Source: Blastocatellia bacterium (GTDB lineage Bacteria; Acidobacteriota; Blastocatellia; RBC074). From it: a DNA stretch of 64,000 nucleotides. The stretch lies in the NCBI GenBank assembly GCA_044221525.1, contig JBGAPB010000001.1:1892-65891 (forward strand), read 5' to 3'. Positions 1 to 33,409 of this stretch are shown in pieces; position 1 is the stretch's first letter; the number at the start of each line of letters is the position of its first letter. Below the pieces are notes generated by a model. It was given only the letters and a program-made list of their open reading frames with translations. It made no database searches and was not told the DNA's origin. The position numbers and the translations under genes were made by a program.

Positions 1-464
1 ACAGTCGAAGCGAATGCAAAGATGTCTTCGCCGATACTCAGGGCGATGTTAGATACAGGTTCCGGGCTGGTGTTTGCCGCCAGTCTTGTTGCTGCTTTTG
101 TGCCGTGCGAACTGAGCGCAATGCCTCCGCCGACAATCATGGCTGTGGCTTTGACCGCAGGATCGAATTCGGCAAAAGCTGTCGCCGCCAAAATCGCTCC
201 GGCGGGAATTCTGATGAAAGTGTGAATCGCGTCCCAGGCCGAATCCACAGCGGGGATTTTGTCGGCGATGAATTCAATCAGGTAAAGGCCGCCCGCCAAT
301 CCAATCACCCACCATTCGCCCAGCACGTTTAATCCGCCGGGCAATTTGACCAGTTCAAAACGTTGCAACACGCCCAGCGTGACAACCGTGGCATACAGAT
401 TGATGCCCGACAGCCAGGCCGAACCCATAGCCGTGCCAAGTGTGGTCAGCCAGTCAGCAGTCAT
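1..464 (-). CDS. DUF4126-like integral membrane protein (partial; 3' end lies beyond window start)
   Basis: Manual reverse-complement translation gives MTADWLTTLGTAMGSAWLSGINLYATVVTLGVLQRF…, hydrophobic and multi-TM; AAAGGAGG SD immediately upstream of ATG at 462-464; not in ORF track because it runs off the edge. Confidence 0.5.
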   Translation of the reverse strand, partial: MTADWLTTLGTAMGSAWLSGINLYATVVTLGVLQRFELVKLPGGLNVLGEWWVIGLAGGLYLIEFIADKIPAVDSAWDAIHTFIRIPAGAILAATAFAEFDPAVKATAMIVGGGIALSSHGTKAATRLAANTSPEPVSNIALSIGEDIFAFAST

Positions 465-613: not shown

Positions 614-1594
614 ATGGCTGACAATGGCCGAAGACTCCAAATGACCATTTCACTGGTTGAAAGAATTCTCGCTCGTGATCTGCGCGCGATTGCCCGCGCA
701 ATCTCCAAGATCGAAAACGATGCTGCCGATGCGAATGAAATCTTGAAGTCGCTGTTCGCGCATACCGGCAAAGGTGTGACCATTGGCATCACGGGTGCGC
801 CCGGAGCAGGAAAATCTTCGCTGGTGGACAAGCTGGCGATGCATTACCGCTCGTCGGCCAGGACGGTTGGCATCATTGCGGTTGACCCGTCCAGCCCTTT
901 TTCTGGCGGAGCCATTCTGGGCGACCGAATTCGCATGCAGACATTGGCTAACGATCCGGGGGTTTTCATTCGATCAATGGCTACGCGGGGTAATTTGGGA
1001 GGGCTGGCACGGGCCACGGTTGACGCGGTTGCGGTGCTGGATGCGGCTGGCTACGATAGAACTCTGGTTGAAACGGTTGGCGTGGGCCAGGACGAAGTAG
1101 AGATAGTAAAAGCCGCAGATGTTTCCGTTGTCGTTCTTGTCCCCGGAATGGGCGACGACATACAGGCGATCAAAGCCGGAATTATGGAAATCGGCGACAT
1201 TTTCGTCATCAACAAAGCCGAACGTGACGGGGTCGAACGCACCGAACGCGAGTTGATAACTTTGCTGGAAATGTCTGAGCGCCCTGACGGCTGGCGACCG
1301 ACGATTGTTCGCACGGTTGCCACCCAGAACAAAGGCATCCCAGAGTTCGTTGAGGCGATTGAAAGTTACGTTTCTTTCAAAACACAGCATCGAGCCTCAC
1401 TGGAACGCAGCGCCGAAGTTGCCGAAATTCGAATAATAGAATTGCTGCGCGAACGATTGCTAAAAAAAGTTTTGAAAGAATCCCTTACCCCGGAAAAGCT
1501 GCACGAACTTGCGCTGGAAGTGGCTTCGCGCCAGCGCGATCCGTATTCGATTGTCGAAGACATCATCTGTAACGTGGAAATACGTTCCAGTTAA
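614..1594 (+). CDS. meaB: Methylmalonyl-CoA mutase-associated GTPase MeaB (ArgK/LAO-AO transport ATPase family)
   Basis: P-loop GITGAPGAGKSS, ArgK-family N-terminus (LVERILARDLRAIARAISKIEN); 326 aa. Confidence 0.9.
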   Translation: MADNGRRLQMTISLVERILARDLRAIARAISKIENDAADANEILKSLFAHTGKGVTIGITGAPGAGKSSLVDKLAMHYRSSARTVGIIAVDPSSPFSGGAILGDRIRMQTLANDPGVFIRSMATRGNLGGLARATVDAVAVLDAAGYDRTLVETVGVGQDEVEIVKAADVSVVVLVPGMGDDIQAIKAGIMEIGDIFVINKAERDGVERTERELITLLEMSERPDGWRPTIVRTVATQNKGIPEFVEAIESYVSFKTQHRASLERSAEVAEIRIIELLRERLLKKVLKESLTPEKLHELALEVASRQRDPYSIVEDIICNVEIRSS

Positions 1595-7592: not shown

Positions 7593-8297
7593 CGTGTCTT
7601 AGTGATCGAAGACGAACTGAAAATGGCTGATTTGATCAAACGTGGTCTCGAGGAAGAGGGGCTGGAAGTTGAGACGGCTTATGACGGTGAAACCGGAATC
7701 GCCGCTGCCAAATCCGGCAACCACGATATGATAATTCTGGATTTGGGTTTGCCAGGTCTGGACGGCTTGGAAATTGCGCGTGAATTGCGCGAGGGCGGGT
7801 TCGATACGCCTATTCTGGTGCTGACAGCACAAGACAGCACTGAAATGAAAGTCAAAGGGCTGGATACCGGCGCAGATGATTACCTAACCAAACCTTTTGC
7901 TTTTGCCGAATTGCTGGCGCGCATTCGCGCGTTATTGCGCCGGACAAATACCGAAGATACAACCAAGATTCAGGCCGGAGATTTGGTGTTGAACCTGATC
8001 AATCGCCGGGCTTCGCGCGCGGGTAATGAGGTGCAGTTGACCAACAAGGAATTTTCGTTGCTCGAATACTTCATGCGCCATCCGGACGAAATCCTTTCCC
8101 GCGAAACGTTGTCCGAAAAAGTCTGGGAAGAGACCTTCGACACGTTGACCAATGTGATTGATGTTTATATCAATTATTTGCGAAACAAGATTGATCGCAA
8201 CTATGAACCCAAACTGATTCACACAGTTCGCGGCATTGGCTACATGTTCAAAAGTCCTGCGGGCCAATCTCAAATGGTTGCAGAAGCTAAAGCCTAA
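7593..8297 (+). CDS. OmpR-family response regulator (CusR/CopR-like)
   Basis: MRVLVIEDE…DLGLPGLDG receiver domain plus winged-helix C-terminus; ORF track extends to 7515 but the canonical start is at 7593. Confidence 0.85.
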   Translation, partial: RVLVIEDELKMADLIKRGLEEEGLEVETAYDGETGIAAAKSGNHDMIILDLGLPGLDGLEIARELREGGFDTPILVLTAQDSTEMKVKGLDTGADDYLTKPFAFAELLARIRALLRRTNTEDTTKIQAGDLVLNLINRRASRAGNEVQLTNKEFSLLEYFMRHPDEILSRETLSEKVWEETFDTLTNVIDVYINYLRNKIDRNYEPKLIHTVRGIGYMFKSPAGQSQMVAEAKA

Positions 8298-12629: not shown

Positions 12630-13631
12630 TCAAAGGACTTGAAGTAGTGGCACCTCAATATGATTCCAGATTGGTTGAACGTCCCGGATAGTAGTAAGAA
12701 TTCTAAGTTGATAGGTTCCAGGTGGGAGTGTAATTGGAGCTAGGTTGGCCATATAAAAAAATTCGTTTTCTTCCAGGGAATCTGGCTGTGAGGCACCAAG
12801 CCGAATGGGTGTATAGGTCAATAAATTGATTGCATGGAAGACCGCACCAAATTCCAAGCTTTTCTTTGTTGCCTTGGCCGCTCCCAAGCCAGTAACTTGA
12901 AAGGAGGCAGTAAGCGAAAACGGTTCCTCTGCTTTTATATACCCCGAAACGGCATGGTGTTGAGTAAAAAGTTCTTGTGGTTGATTAGTCGAAGGTGGCT
13001 GTAGCACCTGAATTCCAGTGATCTCAATGTTTACCGGTGATGATACTGCCGAAACCTCAGTAGAGAGAGCTTCCGTAACAGGTGAATCTTCTTCAGGAGT
13101 AGTTGTTACTTTTTTGCCCAATCGCTTCAACATCCATTTGCAGGCTTCATCGGTTTCAATCCCCGGCCAGCTTGCCTGTTCTTCGGTTTCCATGTGCTGA
13201 ATGCCGGTACGATGCTCTACCTTGGTGCGTTTTTCCTCCTTGCCGCCGACATTTTTGCGCTCGAAACAAACCACGAAATTGGCAAAATCACTCCATTCTT
13301 TTGTCGTCTTGGGTGCGGCGGAAACTTTTTCCGGTTTTGCTTTTGTTGGCGGAGTACTTTCTGGTGCTGATGCTGAGGATTCTTCCGCCAATTCTCTGGC
13401 GCGAGCAAGAATCGGTTCAAGCTCTTCGATTGATATAACTTCACCTGTTTGTTTGCCGCGCGCTCGGATTTTTTGAGCTGACAGCTTTGCAAGATCGGCA
13501 AAGGTATATACCTTCAATGATTCTCGTAACCATTGTTCCAGGGCTTTGCTGACGCCAGGAATGATGGTGAGATTGTCGGTTTTCTGAAGGTCTTCTTGTG
13601 GCGGAATATCGCTTTTTGGGTTGGTTGCCAT
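12630..13631 (-). CDS. Hypothetical protein: HhH-like N-terminus, acidic Ser/Pro linker, beta-rich C-terminal domain
   Basis: GGAGAGA SD; N-terminal IIPGVSKALEQWL…FADLAKLSAQKI is helix-hairpin-helix-like. Confidence 0.5.
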   Translation of the reverse strand: MATNPKSDIPPQEDLQKTDNLTIIPGVSKALEQWLRESLKVYTFADLAKLSAQKIRARGKQTGEVISIEELEPILARARELAEESSASAPESTPPTKAKPEKVSAAPKTTKEWSDFANFVVCFERKNVGGKEEKRTKVEHRTGIQHMETEEQASWPGIETDEACKWMLKRLGKKVTTTPEEDSPVTEALSTEVSAVSSPVNIEITGIQVLQPPSTNQPQELFTQHHAVSGYIKAEEPFSLTASFQVTGLGAAKATKKSLEFGAVFHAINLLTYTPIRLGASQPDSLEENEFFYMANLAPITLPPGTYQLRILTTIRDVQPIWNHIEVPLLQVL

Positions 13632-13781: not shown

Positions 13782-15131
13782 CTAAGCAGATTGCCTGCGT
13801 CTGATTTCGTCGAATAATTGCATGGTTTCTTTGCTTGGCATTATGTTGAGGTCGCGAATCAGGTTTTCGCGGCAATTATGGAATTGACGCAGCGCCAAGT
13901 GCGCATATCCCATCAAGTTGTAACATTGCATTAGCCGACGATGTAGCTCTTCGTTACAGGAATCCACAGCCAGCGCTTTGGAGCACATGGTTACGCACGT
14001 TTCGTAATTTTTCTGATCGAAGTAATAGCAGGACAGGCGATTCATCACGGCCAAATATGTGTCCTGATAGTTTTGTCTGATTGAAACCAGCCATTCCTCA
14101 TAACGATCCTCGACTAAAAACTCGCCCTGATAAATTGTTTCAGCCGCACGATATTCACGAATTGCCGCAGCCTGTTCTCCACGCGCCTCGCATTCTTTTG
14201 CCTTTTGAACGTGTGTTAAAAATGCTTCGGAATCAACCCAAATGTTGGCTTCCGGGTTGAGCAGATAACAGTCATCCTGAAATAGCACATAAGAAAAAGA
14301 GGTATTCACCTTGTTAAGTGATTTGCGCAGGCCATAGATAGCCACATTCAAATTGTTCCTGGCGGCGTCCGGGTCTCCTTCTGGCCAGAAGGCTTCCATT
14401 AAGACTTCTTTGGGAATGGGGCGTTGGCGATGTGTCACCAGATATTTGAAGATTGACTTACCCTTGCAATTTGGCCAGCCAATCACCGGTTGCTCGTCAA
14501 GAAGCACGCGGAATGGGCTTAGAAAGTAAACGGCGAGTGATGGGCGATTTATGGATTGGCTGTCGTCCGTCTCTTCGATGAATGTATCAGGTGTTTCAGT
14601 GTTGGCATTGGCAACCTGAACCACTGGTTGTTCGACGGCTCTTTCCACAACTGGTTTAGGGATTGGTGAAAAAGTTTTTGAATTTGGTGCAGGCCCCAGC
14701 AGGTCCTTAATACACTGCACAAGCCGTTCATACTTGGCAAGGTTGGCATTGAAAGGCTGGCTCAGGTCATTGTTGGAGCCATGAAGTAGATACTTATTGT
14801 TTTTGCCTCCTTCAGTTGGAGGGCTGATCATCTCGATTAGGGCATTGAGTTCCTGTAACAACTTAAGTTGTCGAAGGCTTGCTTTGGAATAAGCATCTCT
14901 GTGCCACTCGACTTCATCCCAGGCGCAACAACAAGCTCTGGATATCCGATAGGCTGCATCAATCATGCAAGCCAGGGATTCATTTCCTGAAAGTTCGCAA
15001 CTTGAACGAACTTCGTTAAGAAGTTCCGCGATGGCTTCATAGCGATAAGTTTTCGGCGCTTCTTCGTCCTTATGTCGCTGCAACGAAGTTTCAATGGTTG
15101 AGTCGGGGGGAATGTTATCTATGGCTATCAT
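13782..15131 (-). CDS. SARP-family (OmpR-like winged helix plus BTAD) transcriptional regulator with about 200-aa unknown N-terminal domain
   Basis: FRVLLDEQPV…LMEAFWPEGDPDAARNNLNVAIYGLRKSL winged helix, followed by a BTAD-like helical repeat region. Confidence 0.65.
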   Translation of the reverse strand: MIAIDNIPPDSTIETSLQRHKDEEAPKTYRYEAIAELLNEVRSSCELSGNESLACMIDAAYRISRACCCAWDEVEWHRDAYSKASLRQLKLLQELNALIEMISPPTEGGKNNKYLLHGSNNDLSQPFNANLAKYERLVQCIKDLLGPAPNSKTFSPIPKPVVERAVEQPVVQVANANTETPDTFIEETDDSQSINRPSLAVYFLSPFRVLLDEQPVIGWPNCKGKSIFKYLVTHRQRPIPKEVLMEAFWPEGDPDAARNNLNVAIYGLRKSLNKVNTSFSYVLFQDDCYLLNPEANIWVDSEAFLTHVQKAKECEARGEQAAAIREYRAAETIYQGEFLVEDRYEEWLVSIRQNYQDTYLAVMNRLSCYYFDQKNYETCVTMCSKALAVDSCNEELHRRLMQCYNLMGYAHLALRQFHNCRENLIRDLNIMPSKETMQLFDEIRRRQSA

Positions 15132-15622
15132 GGCTAAAACTCTTTTCTCAACTTATCTCGCAAAAAGAGGCAACACAGAATTAGTCGAACTTTCATGGGC
15201 TTGTGGTCTTTGCTCGAGCTTGATCTAAAAAAAGGATCAAGCGAGGGTGAACACTAAAAGATCGAATACCTTCTTTAAGGATAACTGGCTAACTCTGTGA
15301 TTGTCGTGCAATTGGTCAGAACTACAGGCGCGCTTGACCAAATGCTGATGGCCGAATGACGAGGACTGATCAATCGGAGAAAACTGTGATATTGGGCAAC
15401 TTAAACTTTGCGTTTGATCGCCAGTTTATGGCGTAGACTGAAAAAAACTGGCCGATCAACAACGGCTGAATTACTTCTTTATTATCGTGTCACTGGGAAA
15501 ATTCTTTAGCTGAGTCCCCCGGCGGCGGCTAATACTACAACGCTCTGTCACTTCAGCCAAAACGAAAAGACAATCTAGAAGTAAAAACTTTCGAGCTGGG
15601 CTTTCAAAAACCGAGCGGCAAT

Positions 15623-15671
15623 CAAAGATAAAGACGGTAACAGAGACTCTCTATTACCGTCTTTATCTTTG
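15623..15671 (-). terminator. Perfect 18-bp-stem hairpin 18 nt downstream of the patatin gene stop
   Basis: caaagataaagacggtaa cagagactctcta ttaccgtctttatctttg. Confidence 0.45.
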
Positions 15672-15688
15672 CGCCGATTTGGTTCGGC

Positions 15689-18600
15689 TTACCCTGTATC
15701 ACCTTCTATGCCGCTCATGGCTTCGTTGTTGATTGGCGGCTTATCTTCGATTCCGAAGTTCTTCTTCATGCGATCAAACAAATCTGTCAGGTCTTTCACA
15801 TCCTTCTTGCCTATGATTTTTTCAACGGCGGTTTCGCCAAGAGAGCGATAGCTCTCGAATTGCGATTCGCTGTACATCTGATCGCCAGTGGTTTCGTGGG
15901 GGAAGGTCGGGTTGTCTTTGGCATAGTTCAGTATATCTGGCGCTTCGGAACCATAGACTGTCGGTTTGATGTAAAGCAGCCAGCCGTTTACAGCTTCTTC
16001 GCCATCAACCGCCTTGTAATTGATTCGGGCCACCGAGCAGTATTGGCCATCGTCACTGCGCCCATCTTTGGTGAACAGCGACTCTGCTTTTATCCGTGGG
16101 CGGATTTTCAGTCTGTCATCGAACTCAATTGGCACGCCTTGATCAATTTGAATCTTCCTGATGGCGCCGCCCAAATCCTCAAAGCTGAAATCGTGGTCGG
16201 CGCTGGCGTCGCTCAGAACGATCAGGTGGCAACGGCGGCGAACCATTTCGTAAAGCCCAAGGTTTTCAAAATGCCCGCCATCCGAAAGATATATGTATTT
16301 GTGTTCGGCATCAGTCAAACCAAATGTTTCCGCCAGCAGATGAATTGGCGCAAAGCGAGGGCTTGAACGCTTGAATTGTTCTTTGCGTGGATTGCCCAGC
16401 CACCAGCCCAAGCGCACGTTGAACAGCGCCAGCAGAAAGGTGACCACTGGCGAAGAGTGATACCCCATGTTGGGACTGGCCGCCGCGCCGGAAATAGCCA
16501 GACAGGTTCCCAGTGAGATTGGTGGTGGGCCAGTTATGTCTGTAGCTCTGCCGCAACCATATTTTTCAGTCGGGCGATAACCAACCAGGCGGCTTCCAGC
16601 GTGTAGCGGAGAGAATGTGAAGGATTCGGCCTTGCGATCTTGCCAGGCCAGATTGCTGTCGGCCACCAAATTAAGCGCGGTGTTAATGACATGCAGAGGA
16701 TGCTGCAACGATGGGCTGATTTTCGATTCGCGCAGCCAGAACATTCTCAAGTTGTCGTCTTCGTCAAAGTTTGTAAATGGGTCTGGCCTCCGTTTGCCGT
16801 TTGTTCTTGAAGCCCCCAGGTAGGCACGAATCAACCGGTCGCGGTAAGCGCCGTGAAGCGAAAACTTGTTGATGTTGATAAACCAACCCGCTATTCCTCC
16901 AAAGGCCATCAGGACAATCGCGGCCAGCACCACAATGTGAGTCGGTGTGTGGTAAAGAACATTCAAGTGCCAGTTTCCGGCAACTGGAAACTGATCGTAC
17001 TTAGGCAAGTAATTCAGGTCGAAAGTGCCCAGTTTTAACAGCCAGTAATTGCCGGTCAGAACTTTGATTGCCAGATTTATCAATTCGCTCCCAGCCGCCA
17101 GTTTTTCCAATATGAACCGAAACATCCAACTGGTCACCAGCGAAAGTGAAACCAGAATGAATGCTGAAAACAAGGGTGCGGCAAAAGGCAACAATGCCTG
17201 GATCAAGTTTTCAGTCTGACTTGGTTTGTGGCCAGAGGCCTGTTTGTTTGCTGCGGTCTTGCCGCTCCACCCGCCCAGCAAAGTCAGCAGACCGGTCAAG
17301 GTGCCAATAGAAAAGAACGATCCTTTCACCATCGGCCCGTATTTGAGCAATAACCAAGGGCCGAAAATCACCAACGATCCGACCACGCTCCAAACCACAA
17401 TTGCTATCAATATCCAGGCGCCAGACCTTGCCAGCCATTCACGATCTGCGTCAGTCATAAAATCGCTGGCCAACCCTGTGTACATTGTTGCGGCAAGCAA
17501 AAGCACCAGCATGAAAAGTGGCGTCGCAAAGCAAACATAAGTCGCGGCATTTAGTGTAAGTGAGTCAAGATAGCCACCGGCCACTTTGGCAGACGGCTCC
17601 CCATATAGCGCCATACCTTCAAAAAAATCATGTTGACCAATGGCAACCGGCGGGAAGATAAAGATTTTTTTGGCGACAAGCCATAAGAAAGCTCCGCCAA
17701 CTGCACCGGTGATTGTGATGTAAAAAACATCCAGCCAACGAAACAGCTTTGATTTAATCGAACGGGCCAAGACCCAAAGCCTGGTTGAGAAGGATTTTTT
17801 TTCACTCAATTCGCTTTCATTGATGCACAGCAGTGAGAGCAGAAAACCTCCGAGATGCAACAGCACGCCGAAGCAGATAAAAATCCAAAACCAGTTCACT
17901 TTCTGGCACCAGCCAGTTTGACATCCGGGCAGATGCGCTCTCAGTTTGGTTTCGCTGACGTGAATCCACGCCCAGTGAATCGCGCTGGTGACGGAAACCG
18001 CCAAAAAAGGAAGTAGACACAAAATGACAAACCAGCTATCACCCAGAGGCACTGGCCAGATTCCAAGAAATTTTTGCCGGCTGCCAGATGTCGCTTTTGA
18101 TCCGGAACCAGGTCGGCAAACGATGACATAAGCAATCGGCAGGGTTCCGCAAGAAACACCCAGCCAAAATAAAATTTTGAATAGTGAATCGCTTGCACCG
18201 GCCCAATGGGCGACCGACATTCCCAAACGCGGAATTACCAGCATCCCCATCAGTAATGGCAATAACACCGACCAGTTCAACAGCAAATTGCGTAAAAATG
18301 TAGCCACCAGCGACCAGGTATCAGCCGACAATAAGCCTAACTTAGGGCTCATATAATTGCTGTATTGACGCAGGTGCGTGATTGGCTCAGGTTCGGGATT
18401 GAGCGCCGACTTGGGCTTGTTGGCGCCGGATGGTTTGCCGGATGTCGCCAGCGCGTTTTCGACGTTATCAACGCCTTGGTGGTAAATCCAGGCCGAAAGC
18501 CAACTGCCGATATATCCTCCGCCTGAAACAGTTGAAAGAAAGTTGAACTCTCTCAGTTTGACGCCCCGTCCGGTCAGCCCCTGTAAAACTCCCAGAGCAA

Positions 18601-18973
18601 AAGTTGCGCTGCGAATACCTCCGCCAGAAAAGCAGAGTGCGGTGCGTTTGATTTTGTGATGATGCAGAGCCTGATAAAAACTATTGGCCAGTTCGCCGGT
18701 TTTCTTCTCAAGATATCTGTGCTGCTCAACCGGCGAAGAAAATTCCTTCAGAGCTGTTTCTTCAAACTCCCTGCATATCTGCTCGATCTCGCCGGTGGTA
18801 AAAGTGATCTGACGACCAGATAGGTCACCGGTTAGCTTTTCTGGCCATGAAGGATTCAATCGTCGTTGATGCTCGAACTCTGCAACTAAAATTTCGACGA
18901 GTGTCAGCGGACGCCCGTCGGTTTCTTGCTGGCGATTGCTGGTTTGCTGATAGCTTTTTGTTTGGGGTTCCAT
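15689..18973 (-). CDS. Patatin-like phospholipase fused to a large polytopic membrane domain (1094 aa)
   Basis: CFSGGGIRSATFALGVL (GGGxR oxyanion hole) near the N-terminus, DGGHFENLGL catalytic Asp motif near the C-terminus; more than 10 predicted TM helices between. Confidence 0.8.
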   Translation of the reverse strand: MEPQTKSYQQTSNRQQETDGRPLTLVEILVAEFEHQRRLNPSWPEKLTGDLSGRQITFTTGEIEQICREFEETALKEFSSPVEQHRYLEKKTGELANSFYQALHHHKIKRTALCFSGGGIRSATFALGVLQGLTGRGVKLREFNFLSTVSGGGYIGSWLSAWIYHQGVDNVENALATSGKPSGANKPKSALNPEPEPITHLRQYSNYMSPKLGLLSADTWSLVATFLRNLLLNWSVLLPLLMGMLVIPRLGMSVAHWAGASDSLFKILFWLGVSCGTLPIAYVIVCRPGSGSKATSGSRQKFLGIWPVPLGDSWFVILCLLPFLAVSVTSAIHWAWIHVSETKLRAHLPGCQTGWCQKVNWFWIFICFGVLLHLGGFLLSLLCINESELSEKKSFSTRLWVLARSIKSKLFRWLDVFYITITGAVGGAFLWLVAKKIFIFPPVAIGQHDFFEGMALYGEPSAKVAGGYLDSLTLNAATYVCFATPLFMLVLLLAATMYTGLASDFMTDADREWLARSGAWILIAIVVWSVVGSLVIFGPWLLLKYGPMVKGSFFSIGTLTGLLTLLGGWSGKTAANKQASGHKPSQTENLIQALLPFAAPLFSAFILVSLSLVTSWMFRFILEKLAAGSELINLAIKVLTGNYWLLKLGTFDLNYLPKYDQFPVAGNWHLNVLYHTPTHIVVLAAIVLMAFGGIAGWFININKFSLHGAYRDRLIRAYLGASRTNGKRRPDPFTNFDEDDNLRMFWLRESKISPSLQHPLHVINTALNLVADSNLAWQDRKAESFTFSPLHAGSRLVGYRPTEKYGCGRATDITGPPPISLGTCLAISGAAASPNMGYHSSPVVTFLLALFNVRLGWWLGNPRKEQFKRSSPRFAPIHLLAETFGLTDAEHKYIYLSDGGHFENLGLYEMVRRRCHLIVLSDASADHDFSFEDLGGAIRKIQIDQGVPIEFDDRLKIRPRIKAESLFTKDGRSDDGQYCSVARINYKAVDGEEAVNGWLLYIKPTVYGSEAPDILNYAKDNPTFPHETTGDQMYSESQFESYRSLGETAVEKIIGKKDVKDLTDLFDRMKKNFGIEDKPPINNEAMSGIEGDTG

Positions 18974-19785
18974 AATCAGTTGAGCGTTGAGTCTTCTTGT
19001 TTCCTTTTCAAAAGGCTAATGTCTCAATATTAGATGATGATCTAGTCAAATTTAGCGAAGCGCTGAGAGGGTAATGAAAACTAAAAAGTGACTAGAGCTT
19101 GTATTTAAGCAAGAAAGCAGGCTGTTTCTGCAATTTGTCAGCCAGATTCCGCCTCTCTTTCGGCATCAGGCAGTAGTTGAGATGTCTTTATCATTTGCTA
19201 GGTAATCATCGTTGCACTCCCAGGAGAAAGTATTGTGTATGGCTTCGGTATAATCTGGAAAATAGTTCGTTTGACTGATAAGGCAATGGCAAATGTAGTC
19301 CAATTGTTATGCAAGCGTCAATTTTTTTGGCGGAGAGTTTGAATTTCTTTTGGTCGCTGAGATTGCCGTTCTCCGGCTTGCGCCTCTGGAATTGATAATG
19401 TAGCATCTCGGCCATCATCGAGCATCAGTAATGAGCTGTGATCGCTGAGGCGCTAAAACACTTCTAGCGCCGTTGCAGATTCCCGCAAAAGTTCCTACGT
19501 TGATCTTCATAGTGGGGAGAAATCTCATCTCTGAACGAAAGGTTCAGAGGCAAGGACACCTAATTCTCAATCTAGTCTTTTGATTGAGCGTCAATCGTCG
19601 GCAATGCTGCGCCTACTTCGGCTGTGCTTAATTGCCTGGAAATAAACCTGAGCGGATAAACTGCTTCAACAATCAATGCTTGACTTGTCGCTGAGGCTCC
19701 AACTTTTGAAAGCAGCCAGTCCGCACTGCTTTCAAAGCCAATTTACCGCATTTGCCCCTGCGCATCTGCACTAAGGAGAAAGAAA

Positions 19786-20253
19786 GTGAACCGAAAACTG
19801 ATTCGCACAACTTTGGCTGAAGTCAAAGAAAGAGAGTATCACCAACAGCAGGTGCGCCGAGCTGAGCCACCGCCCCAACCTCAACATCGTCAGGAGCGTC
19901 CCGAGCGTCCAGCCCATCAGGGGCATCAAGGGCATCAGGCTCAACCTAAGAAGAAAATTCCGCCTGAGCAGACCAATGCTGAAAGCTTTTACTACAAAAA
20001 GCAGATGGACGCTCACACGCCAATGGTTTTGGTTTTACAGGACAATGAAGCTCTGCACGGGATCATTGAATGGTATGACAAAAACAGCATCAAGCTGCAT
20101 CGTGACGAAGGGCCGAACCTGTTAGTTCTGAAACATAACATCAAGTACATGTACAAAGACGAGGATGTGAAATCTTCAAAAGGAAAAGGCGAGTCGAGTG
20201 CCCGGCACGACGATGACGATGACGACGATTATGAAGATTCGGACGACGAATAG
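19786..20253 (+). CDS. Hfq-like Sm-fold RNA-binding protein with basic His/Pro-rich N-terminal extension and poly-Asp C-terminal tail
   Basis: GTG start after AAGGAGAAAG; Sm1-like [24 protein letters not shown] and Sm2-like LVLKHNIKY (compare Hfq [25 protein letters not shown]…YKHAI). Confidence 0.5.
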
Positions 20254-30850: not shown

Positions 30851-33409
30851 TTACTTCACATCCAAGTAATCCAATTTTAGATAGCTGCTGGCATCGCCGA
30901 CCAAAAACAGAAGCGGGCGTCCATTGATGATGGCAGCGGTTATCCCTTCGGGTTTGTATTTGGGACTGAGCGTCGCCTGTTCGCGCACTTTGGTTGAAAG
31001 TGCCTCGCCGTCCCATTCCCATAATTTGAACTCAGCTTTTTCAACGCCTTCTGGCGCGCCGGAAATGATCAGGAAAGATTTCAGATGCGCGTCATAAGTT
31101 ATGTCGCGCACTCCCTGACCGCCAAGCTGCAAAAAGATGACTCGCGGATTTTCGACCACCAGATTGTCGGCGTTGAACACCCCACGCGGGTCTTTCAAAC
31201 GCAGTGGAACCAAAACAGCTTGGGCGCCAACCAGTGAGCGCAATCCGACCACCAGTCGGTCACGCAATTTATCCCAGGCCAGGCCTTCGACATTCAAACC
31301 TCCCTGAGCGCTGGGAATTTCTCCCTGGCTTTTCAGTTCAGGGACTTTGCTTAGCAGCAAGCCGCGAAAGTCGTTGATGACTTCGGCTTGTCCGCGAAGC
31401 GTCTCTGTTTGCGGGTCGAATGCAAAACGCACGATGGCGTTGTCACCGCCCCAGGCTGCATCTGACAGCGAGCCGACAATGTAAAAGTGAGCGCCATCGT
31501 TGGTGATGGCTTCAGGGTTCTTGATTGTCACACCAAGCGGGATTGCTTTGGGAGCGCCGACTGGCTCACCTGCCGCGTTCAACTTCATTGCCAGAACGGC
31601 TCCCGGCTGACCATCGTCAACCATTAAAACCAAATCGCTCCCTGGAACGTGAGCCACACCGGAAGCTTCAATTGCCTTGCCTGGCAACGACGACCAGGAG
31701 TCGGAGCTAACGACCTTTGTGACGCTGGTTTTGATGTCGTTGATGACTTTGTCTTCTTTGCTGGGCATGAGCGCATATTTGGCTACAATCACTGACCCCA
31801 CTATACCCACAACTCCACCCAAAACCTGAGCGATGATGCGGCTCATGGCGTTAGCGCTGAAAAAACCGCCCTTGTCTTTGTCTTTCTTCTTTTTCTTCTT
31901 CTCGGATTTTTCTACTTCATCATCTTCGGCTGCGGTGACAACTTTTGAAGGGGGCACAGACCAGGAACTTGGATTCGTGGACGGCGCGGAAGCGACAGGG
32001 CCGCTTTTGAGTGCGGCGCGGCGACGAACGTCTTCCAAAGCTTCCAACGACAATCGAGCGGTTTTGTTTTCTGTGGTTTCAGCCGGATTACGGAAAGTCA
32101 GCATGACATTACCGAGTTGAATTTTGTCGCCATGTTGCAGCGTGTAAGCGTCTCCGCCTTGCCGGTTACCGTTGATAAACGTGCCATTGCTGCTGCCCAG
32201 ATCAACGATGGTGTAACCTCCGTCTCGTACGACGACGATGGCGTGTGTGCTGCTGACCGTTGGGTCATTGACCACCAGCTTGTTGTGCGGAGCTTTGCCG
32301 ATTTCGATTTCCGGCTGATTCAAAAGGGCTTCAATCTTTTCACCCGTTGGCATGACGCCGATCAATCGCGGTGTGAAGTGGTTGTCAATTTGTGCGGTAA
32401 TTTCGCTGGGCAAAGCCAATCTTAGCGAGGCTTTTTTGCCTGTGACGCGTTCGACTTCGTCAATTGTCGCTTTGTCAGTTGGGTCGGCAATGGCCAGCAT
32501 TAACTTGTCTGGCTGTTGACCGATGACAGGGCAAACCGAACGGCTTCGCAAAAAATCAACGCGCAATTTGGCTGCCGTCACGGCGTCAACTTCCATTGTT
32601 CTCATGTCAATTGGAACCAGATTGAAAGTGCGTCCAATCAAATCGCGCAAGCCGATTTCGCTGACCAATTTTTCTTCGGTCAAAGCCTGAAACAGTCTCC
32701 GGCTTTTTTTGCCTGGCGCGCCGACACCTTGCAGGCGACTAATTTCTGTTTGAGCTACAAGTCCGGCAGAAACCAGCGCTTGAGCCAGCGAGGCTTCAGT
32801 CATCGGAGGGGTCTTCGGTGTTGGCGGCGCCAACGGCGGCGGCGGCGGGGCGTTGTCCAGTAACACAGTGCGCGGGATTGATTGTGTGGTTTCGGCTTCT
32901 TTAATCCGGAAAGTGATCGCGCAATGTCCCATCTTGATCAAATCGCCGTGCTGCAATTTGCGCGATTCAGTGACACGGACTTCGTTGACAAAGGTTCCGT
33001 TGCGGCTTCCCAAATCGCTTAAGGTGAAGGCGTCATCGGCAAAACTGATCATGGCATGAGTTGATGACACAGAAGCGTCTGTCAAAACGATTTCGTTTTG
33101 AGGCCCTTTGCCGATTCTGGTTTCAGCGCCAGCCAGACCACGTTCAGTTACCAGGCCTTCGCGCGACAAAATGTGTAGAGTGGCCTCGATGGATTGGGTT
33201 TCTTTCTGGGGAGTTGTCATAGTTTTGAGCGCCGTGGCTTCCAACATATTCTTGGAAAGCGAATCTTTTGGCGGTGAAGATGGGGGCGATTCAAGTTGCA
33301 GATTCGGTTTACTTAAATCAAATGCTTGCAAATCAGCGCCGCATTGATTACAGAACCGGCTGCTTTCGCGCGGAACGGGGAAATTGCATTGAGGGCATTC
33401 ATTAATCAT
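30851..33409 (-). CDS. Multidomain signalling protein: Zn-ribbon–FHA–GspE_N/MshEN-like–FHA–TM–periplasmic domain
   Basis: CPQCNF…CNQCG; two FHA cores (…GRS/GSSNGTF…); LAQALVSAGLV…LAIADPTDKATIDEV T2SS-E N-domain pattern; one TM at about residue 520; K-rich tract. Confidence 0.7.
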   Translation of the reverse strand: MINECPQCNFPVPRESSRFCNQCGADLQAFDLSKPNLQLESPPSSPPKDSLSKNMLEATALKTMTTPQKETQSIEATLHILSREGLVTERGLAGAETRIGKGPQNEIVLTDASVSSTHAMISFADDAFTLSDLGSRNGTFVNEVRVTESRKLQHGDLIKMGHCAITFRIKEAETTQSIPRTVLLDNAPPPPPLAPPTPKTPPMTEASLAQALVSAGLVAQTEISRLQGVGAPGKKSRRLFQALTEEKLVSEIGLRDLIGRTFNLVPIDMRTMEVDAVTAAKLRVDFLRSRSVCPVIGQQPDKLMLAIADPTDKATIDEVERVTGKKASLRLALPSEITAQIDNHFTPRLIGVMPTGEKIEALLNQPEIEIGKAPHNKLVVNDPTVSSTHAIVVVRDGGYTIVDLGSSNGTFINGNRQGGDAYTLQHGDKIQLGNVMLTFRNPAETTENKTARLSLEALEDVRRRAALKSGPVASAPSTNPSSWSVPPSKVVTAAEDDEVEKSEKKKKKKDKDKGGFFSANAMSRIIAQVLGGVVGIVGSVIVAKYALMPSKEDKVINDIKTSVTKVVSSDSWSSLPGKAIEASGVAHVPGSDLVLMVDDGQPGAVLAMKLNAAGEPVGAPKAIPLGVTIKNPEAITNDGAHFYIVGSLSDAAWGGDNAIVRFAFDPQTETLRGQAEVINDFRGLLLSKVPELKSQGEIPSAQGGLNVEGLAWDKLRDRLVVGLRSLVGAQAVLVPLRLKDPRGVFNADNLVVENPRVIFLQLGGQGVRDITYDAHLKSFLIISGAPEGVEKAEFKLWEWDGEALSTKVREQATLSPKYKPEGITAAIINGRPLLFLVGDASSYLKLDYLDVK

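Follow-up and report, generated by a model that had tools for sequence, protein, structure and literature searches.

Enzymes of the patatin/cPLA2 (cytosolic phospholipase A2) superfamily, such as cPLA2 and the PNPLA members, include lysophospholipases and transacylases. cPLA2 carries a GGGxR loop, a nucleophile elbow of the form x-S-G-[GS] followed by an aromatic residue, and an aspartate within the pattern D-x-G...N-L; a large insertion separates its catalytic Ser from the catalytic Asp. The cap and lid that control substrate entry (structure 1CJY) are located between these two residues. Bacterial patatins such as CapV, ExoU and RssA-type proteins are soluble, secreted or tethered to the outer membrane, and their catalytic domain is a contiguous ~190–300 amino acids (aa). 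Here, we describe a gene of a Blastocatellia bacterium (Acidobacteriota; assembly GCA_044221525.1, contig JBGAPB010000001.1) at positions 15689..18973 of a 64,000-nucleotide window, which is the whole stretch of DNA analysed (contig positions 1,892 to 65,891, forward strand). The predicted product, called the split lipase below, is read by us, with a probability of roughly 0.6, as a permanently membrane-integrated patatin/cPLA2 acyl hydrolase, by type either a phospholipase A or a lysophospholipase, that probably acts on the cell's own membrane lipids. The four patatin blocks are recognisable in it too, although 490 aa of membrane helices are inserted among them. Compared with cPLA2, which is soluble, recruited by a C2 domain and equipped with a soluble cap and lid, it has no C2 domain and carries a ten-helix transmembrane (TM) insertion. 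We know of no bacterial patatin in which a polytopic alpha-helical insert divides the catalytic domain.

Three bacterial lipases were compared with this architecture. CapV, an effector of the cyclic oligonucleotide-based antiphage signaling system (CBASS), is soluble, is activated by cyclic GMP-AMP and relocates to the membrane (PMC12480259). The sequence-only reading had set the present architecture apart from such soluble effectors, and this distinction stands. No signalling partner is encoded here, and the PADLOC models were negative. PlaF of Pseudomonas aeruginosa is an inner-membrane phospholipase A1 that remodels endogenous glycerophospholipids (PMC9132575). How bacteria degrade their own membrane phospholipids in a controlled manner is poorly understood, and PlaF is among the very few inner-membrane phospholipases A studied (PMC9132575). 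The likeness to PlaF would be functional only, in that both would be intracellular phospholipases A of the cytoplasmic membrane acting on endogenous glycerophospholipids. PlaF has no polytopic domain; it is an alpha/beta-hydrolase anchored by one TM helix at its N terminus, its catalytic domain is periplasmic, and its fold is unrelated to that of the split lipase. PlpD resembles the split lipase in that a patatin is covalently joined to a membrane part (PMC11116518). However, PlpD combines a contiguous patatin with POTRA and Omp85 and ends in a C-terminal outer-membrane beta-barrel (PMC11116518), whereas the membrane part of the split lipase is predicted to be alpha-helical, placed in the inner membrane and inserted inside the catalytic domain. 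A literature search, with most subscription journals outside its coverage, returned no paper on a patatin/cPLA2-like domain split by a polytopic insert. The novelty lies in recognising the architecture, its resemblance to cPLA2, the orientation, which is likely cytoplasmic, and a membrane fold not recognised before. Databases already contain the sequences under generic names, and an identical protein is on record (P0001; NCBI, from an Acidobacteriota metagenome-assembled genome, MAG).

Catalytic residues and predicted fold

Homologs were sought among 5.8 billion proteins (E ≤ 1e-5), and more than 7,800 were found. The best 120 of these are 920–1480 aa long with an unchanged layout, and invariance was scored on their alignment, to which all homolog counts below refer. 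G117, G118, G119 and R121 of the oxyanion-hole loop, S150, G151, G152 and G153 of the nucleophile elbow, and D898 and G899 of the aspartate motif were invariant in 120 of 120 sequences (Table 1). Block III was likewise invariant at A826, S828, G829, A830, A831 and P834, and about 280 further alignment positions were invariant as well. The sequence-only reading had reported a GGGxR loop, a DGG motif and a GxSxG-type elbow. The first two are present (the loop as GGGIR), but the elbow is a non-canonical variant that reads TVSGG, and position −2 is Thr (T148) instead of Gly in 116 of the 120 homologs. Degeneration of the motifs in homologs, which had been raised as a reason to doubt the assignment, was looked for in this alignment, and the motifs proved invariant throughout. 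Their surroundings, SGGG-aromatic-x-x-S-W after the Ser and D-G-G-x-F-x-N-L around the Asp, agree with the cPLA2 pattern.

Table 1. Positions in the window of the split lipase gene, its parts and its neighbours.
Feature	Amino acids	Window positions	Strand	Description or basis
Whole gene	 	15689..18973	−	Single 1094-aa open reading frame (ORF); predicted split patatin/cPLA2-like acyl hydrolase with inserted 10-TM domain
N-terminal helical extension	22-105	18659..18910	−	AlphaFold2 (AF2) predicted local distance difference test (pLDDT) >90 over aa 21-110
Catalytic domain, N-terminal half	108-214	18332..18652	−	Strand, oxyanion loop, helix, strand, nucleophile elbow
GGGIR oxyanion-hole/phosphate-binding motif	117-121	18611..18625	−	Motif scan and alignment
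Nucleophile elbow T-V-S150-G-G (GxSxG variant)	148-152	18518..18532	−	Motif scan and alignment
Inserted membrane domain	215-700	16874..18331	−	Hydropathy, AF2, Lys + Arg (K+R) bias
TM1-TM5	~230-248, 267-285, 315-333, 361-379, 416-434		−	Family-mean hydropathy
TM6-TM10	~481-499, 519-537, 549-567, 594-612, 681-699		−	Family-mean hydropathy
DADREW motif, predicted cytoplasmic TM6-TM7 loop	508-513	17435..17452	−	Alignment and topology
Catalytic domain, C-terminal half	701-1060	15794..16873	−	AF2 secondary structure, Foldseek, dense invariant columns
Patatin block III-like motif AISGAAASP	826-834	16472..16498	−	Motif scan and alignment
DGG with putative catalytic Asp898	898-900	16274..16282	−	Motif scan and alignment
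SARP-like gene		13782..15131	−	Trans_reg_C + BTAD (Pfam); downstream of lipase, same strand
orf333		12630..13631	−	333-aa ORF, domain-less; beyond SARP-like gene
Spacer, SARP-like gene/lipase		15132-15688		557 bp, GC content 0.44; non-coding
Spacer, lipase/divergent Hfq-like gene		18974..19785		812 bp, GC content 0.44; non-coding
Hfq-like gene		19786-20253	+	155-aa protein; Hfq_1/Hfq core at aa 77-127

The Pfam Patatin family (PF01734) matched aa 113-166 only (profile positions 1-51 of 191; E = 4.4e-6), and many homologs bear a precomputed match to the same family. Joining the two soluble halves gave a Patatin score of 25.6 bits, which is no gain over the full protein. No Pfam family matched the C-terminal catalytic half, and PF01735 (PLA2_B) and C2 gave no Pfam match even at E values up to 5. 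Because the Patatin score is sub-threshold and the elbow non-canonical, the protein appears to belong to a divergent branch of the patatin/cPLA2 superfamily and not to be an ordinary patatin.

The full-length AF2 model had a pLDDT of 74.8 and a predicted template modelling score (pTM) of 0.78. Its N-terminal catalytic half has strands at aa 110-116 and 145-149, and its C-terminal half contains a beta-sheet, block III, the Asp loop and, at the C-terminal end, a conserved FPHExTxDQxYxExQFExYR segment. When the model was compared with the PDB using Foldseek, cPLA2 alpha and cPLA2 delta accounted for all of the first 10 matches (E 1.4e-4 to 4.6e-2, probability 0.96–1.0). Human cPLA2 alpha (1cjy; E 1.4e-4, probability 1.0) was the best, followed by cPLA2 delta (5iz5, 5ixc, 5izr), and the matches ranking after these were insignificant. 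These matches therefore place the catalytic domain, as modelled, structurally in the patatin/cPLA2 superfamily, and it looks closer there to the cPLA2 branch than to classical patatin. The likeness to cPLA2 alpha (1CJY) and delta (5IZ5, 5IXC) lies in these best matches, whose E values run from 1.4e-4 to 8e-4 at a probability of 1.0, and in the putative Ser-Asp dyad. By its motifs and predicted fold, the protein is a member of the superfamily.

The distance from Ser150 to Asp898 is 748 aa, of which the membrane domain (aa 215-700) takes only ~490 aa; residues 701-897 are part of the catalytic fold and not of the membrane domain. The sequence-only reading had assigned the central domain roughly 600 aa and more than 10 TM helices. 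Its polytopic, membrane-spanning character is upheld, but the length is reduced to ~490 aa and the number of helices to ten. The broader proposal of an integral-membrane patatin-type lipase with its motifs split by a polytopic domain agrees with hydropathy, the AF2 models and the invariant motifs. On motifs and model together, we consider it quite likely that the molecule is a membrane-integrated Ser-Asp lipid hydrolase.

The ratio of nonsynonymous to synonymous substitution rates (dN/dS), calculated against an 83 %-identical relative on contig L001, was 0.12 for the whole protein; the catalytic halves gave 0.07 and 0.08, and the membrane domain gave 0.09. Purifying selection is therefore strong on each of these three parts, and the conservation of the architecture is far beyond chance. 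The N-terminal extension has invariant residues at L25, L29 and E32 but is otherwise quick to evolve (dN/dS 0.33 for aa 1-99); a part in regulation or oligomerisation is possible.

The membrane domain and its orientation

Ten conserved hydrophobic segments were found between aa 230 and 699, both in single-sequence hydropathy and in the mean over the 120 homologs. Ten long helices were also present in both AF2 models, that of the full-length protein and that of the membrane region alone (pLDDT 81.8, pTM 0.83). The possibility that the centre does not span the membrane, named in advance as a point that would count against an integral-membrane lipase, was examined in this way, and the centre was found to be membrane-spanning.

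Hydropathy revealed no hydrophobic segment ahead of aa 229 and no signal peptide, so the 228-aa N-terminal part should remain cytoplasmic. Ten is an even number of helices; the chain would therefore return to the side from which it started, as is needed for the two halves to form one split domain. Across the 120 homologs, the mean number of K+R residues was 19.4 in the predicted cytoplasmic loops vs. 9.8 in the opposite loops, and the inside exceeded the outside in 97.5 % of homologs. This positive-inside bias, together with the even helix count and the lack of a signal peptide, indicates that both catalytic halves should face the cytoplasm, and the catalytic domain is accordingly predicted from sequence to be cytoplasmic.

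Among the polar features of the membrane domain, the DADREW motif is the most conserved; in and beside it, D508, D510, R511, E512 and R516 were invariant in 120 of 120 homologs. Its loop is predicted to lie on the same side as the catalytic halves. Invariant polar residues also mark both junctions with the catalytic domain, LSADTW...R228-N229 on one side and N702...H707...R711-R713 on the other. Because of these junction residues and the DADREW loop, the membrane domain is probably more than an anchor.

The fold of this domain matched nothing recognisable. Taken alone, it found no significant PDB fold (best Foldseek E 0.18, TM-scores ≤0.21), no structural match in BFVD and no Pfam family, and an internal 5+5 duplication sought with hhalign was not found. 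A HMMER scan with only the membrane domain against 1.84 billion cluster representatives returned 1,320 relatives. The best 150 of the 1,320 were long proteins with the domain internal, and the GGGxR and serine motifs were present in 127 of the 141 new representatives examined; those without a motif, mostly shorter, are probably fragments. The domain was thus present only within the lipase architecture and does not appear to be a free-standing module that was fused once. Helix number varies in the family. Members of 1200–1480 aa (P0008, P0025 and others) have 150–250 extra residues within the membrane domain, and these resemble a repeat of the TM4-TM5 unit (FGxLxHxxGY...TGAxGG).

In the mechanism that we propose, the Ser150-Asp898 dyad and the GGGxR oxyanion/phosphate loop would cleave acyl esters of membrane lipids. 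The membrane domain, inserted between nucleophile and Asp, would take the position of the cPLA2 cap and lid. Besides serving as the anchor, it would keep the funnel of the active site against the cytoplasmic leaflet and supply Ser150 with a lipid of that leaflet or gate its passage, with the DADREW loop presumably at the interface with the catalytic domain. Since the insert occupies the cap position, the membrane domain probably replaces the cap; that the replacement is a substrate-gating domain falls, on the model, a little short of an even chance. More speculative is the idea that the ten-helix insert is a new membrane fold acting in place of the cPLA2 cap as a lipid gate or conduit, or as a sensor of membrane state.

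Distribution and possible roles

A pattern scan with one genome per species found relatives in at least 589 species. Thousands of bacteria from soil and freshwater share the split-lipase architecture; the species found include members of the Acidobacteriota, Nitrospira, Verrucomicrobiota, Bacteroidota (Spirosoma, Dyadobacter), Gemmatimonadota and Methylomirabilia and of the Alpha-, Beta-, Gamma- and 'Delta'-proteobacteria. The gene was also present in 42 plasmid records, mostly megaplasmids or chromids of Rhizobium, Sinorhizobium, Methylobacterium, Cupriavidus and Azospirillum, where it is annotated as "patatin-like phospholipase family protein" or "hypothetical protein". Searches of E. coli genomes gave no DNA-level match. 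One Thermoanaerobaculia MAG (DATARD01) carried two paralogs of the family on separate contigs (L004, L081).

By analogy with PlaF, the likeliest role of the enzyme would be the controlled deacylation (remodelling or turnover) of the cell's own membrane glycerolipids, an assignment that we make tentatively. If the insert is indeed a new fold that gates or conducts lipids in place of the cap, the family would represent integral-membrane phospholipases A that are widespread in bacteria but were overlooked as a class, and it would parallel cPLA2 without needing a recruitment step. Lands-cycle-type remodelling or regulated self-lysis could then be studied in Acidobacteriota, Nitrospira, rhizobia and Methylobacterium. 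The family is large, and its carriers include the Acidobacteriota, Nitrospirota, Verrucomicrobiota and rhizobia, which are dominant in soils and in nitrification. Its split catalytic domain is a natural experiment on substrate access of interfacial lipases, and the membrane domain offers structural study a new membrane fold.

Several observations weigh against this reading. The Patatin match scored 27.5 bits, under the gathering cut-off of 27.7 bits, with 51 of the 191 profile positions covered, and the serine elbow is TxSxG rather than GxSxG. Neither the family profile nor the joined soluble halves retrieved a patatin or cPLA2 among PDB sequences. AF2 confidence fell below 50 at the block III loop, the DGG loop and both junctions of the membrane domain. 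The cPLA2 likeness is one of fold and motifs only, and Ser150 and Asp898 are putative counterparts of cPLA2 Ser228 and Asp549. Finally, the family is patchy and is carried on rhizobial and Methylobacterium megaplasmids, so an accessory or conflict function fits its distribution equally well as lipid homeostasis.

The same parts could make up a self-contained conflict or suicide effector, in which the membrane domain would sense envelope damage or phage entry and free the lipase on the inner membrane, either as CapV-like abortive infection without a nucleotide signal or as a toxin requiring an immunity partner. Such a self-destruct device would be a sensor and effector in one protein. Patatin lipases are the commonest CBASS effectors (PMC12480259), and the patchy spread across phyla, the megaplasmids, the two paralogs in one MAG and the variable downstream flank would all suit a conflict gene, as would the position in Nitrospira beside a second, soluble patatin and a DUF87/HerA-like ATPase. 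However, no PADLOC model matched the protein or its neighbours, the window contained no cyclase, sensor, immunity-like partner or defence island, and the genes nearby encode PdxA, the Hfq-like protein, citrate synthase and DapF. We compared the neighbourhoods of 81 related loci from many phyla, clustering their 4,414 ORFs all-against-all, and found no partner gene common to phyla, only lineage-restricted neighbours; neighbourhoods taken from annotated records gave the same picture. The gene was found in 0 of 50,697 phage records and on one of 2.9 million viral contigs (IMG/VR). Synteny is stable among Nitrospira. Purifying selection is uniform, and the membrane domain shows no sensor surface that evolves quickly. 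A conflict effector is unlikely in our judgement, and the defence framing implied by the sequence-only reading was not borne out. Similarly improbable is that the same fold performs other chemistry, as a transacylase or acyltransferase, or as a hydrolase of a non-phospholipid membrane substrate (lysolipids, ornithine or aminolipids, acylated glycolipids, triacylglycerol, wax esters or lipoprotein acyl chains), with the membrane domain binding an acceptor or a specific lipid. The superfamily's known lysophospholipases and transacylases allow for it. The invariance of R228/N229, DADREW and N702/H707/R711 goes beyond the requirements of a mere anchor and points to a dedicated binding site, and a Pyr_redox_3 flavoprotein often adjoins the gene in Acidobacteriota (8 loci). 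The sequence features, however, do not discriminate hydrolysis from transfer, and no acyl-carrier, ligase or lipid-biosynthesis gene was conserved alongside in the loci compared.

The sequence-only reading had also suggested regulation by the adjacent SARP protein. The SARP-like gene, a winged helix-turn-helix plus BTAD protein by its Trans_reg_C and BTAD matches in Pfam, is adjacent to the lipase gene on the same strand and is retained in near-identical (>90 %) relatives, as would be expected if the two worked together and the SARP protein controlled the lipase. It lies, however, downstream past the 557-bp spacer, and it has no homolog at the 81 related loci, where tblastn gave no match when the SARP-like protein, orf333, orf203 and orf252 were the queries. 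In the 83 %-identical relative, an unrelated gene takes its position; the SARP/orf333 block differs in composition from the lipase (GC 0.467 for the SARP gene vs. 0.503); and on another contig, the SARP gene accompanies orf333 and not the lipase. We reject this partnership as very improbable. Still less credence is given to the view that the patatin halves are catalytically dead relics of what is essentially a transporter or receptor. The sub-threshold Pfam score and the non-canonical elbow could be taken that way, but all catalytic residues are invariant in 120 of 120 homologs, dN/dS is 0.07–0.08 in the catalytic halves, and the membrane domain resembles no transporter fold. The predicted membrane-integrated acyl hydrolase would serve as a stand-alone, single-gene accessory function and not in an operon with the SARP gene; the lipase gene is probably monocistronic.

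Genomic surroundings

The gene is situated in a housekeeping neighbourhood. Divergently upstream are the Hfq-like gene and pdxA, followed farther away by genes for citrate synthase, a GFO/IDH/MocA-family oxidoreductase, dapF and a two-component system. The 812-bp spacer on this side is the presumed promoter region. Both spacers flanking the gene are unusually long. Neither contained an Rfam family, a tRNA or a convincing ORF, and promoter- or terminator-like matches in them were no commoner than in shuffled sequences; Rfam and tRNA scans of the window as a whole also found nothing. In the Hfq-like protein, the N-terminal extension is long and rich in Gln, Pro and His, and the C-terminal tail is poly-Asp; the gene is kept beside pdxA on L001, where this side is retained and the unrelated gene stands on the other.

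On the downstream side, the segment 12630-15688 has a GC content of 0.44–0.47 and a third-position GC content (GC3) of 0.40–0.48, compared with 0.503 and 0.55 for the lipase gene and a GC content of 0.506 for the window. It resembles a variable region or an insertion. The N-terminal 225 aa of the SARP-like protein matched no family.

In Nitrospira, a full-length soluble PF01734 patatin of ~480 aa is encoded directly upstream of the split patatin (L007, L008, L015, L016, L017, L048, L063 and L074). The same soluble patatin neighbour is also upstream in L024 and L050; in every one of the loci named, it is ~1.5 kb upstream of position 8001. A DUF87/HerA-like ATPase of ~830 aa is convergent just downstream in Nitrospira, and a UPF0114 gene lies farther upstream. 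Together, these genes may form a lineage-specific multi-gene unit. Elsewhere in the window, 30851-33409 (− strand) encodes an 852-aa protein with an unusual combination of two FHA domains, MshEN and DUF3616.

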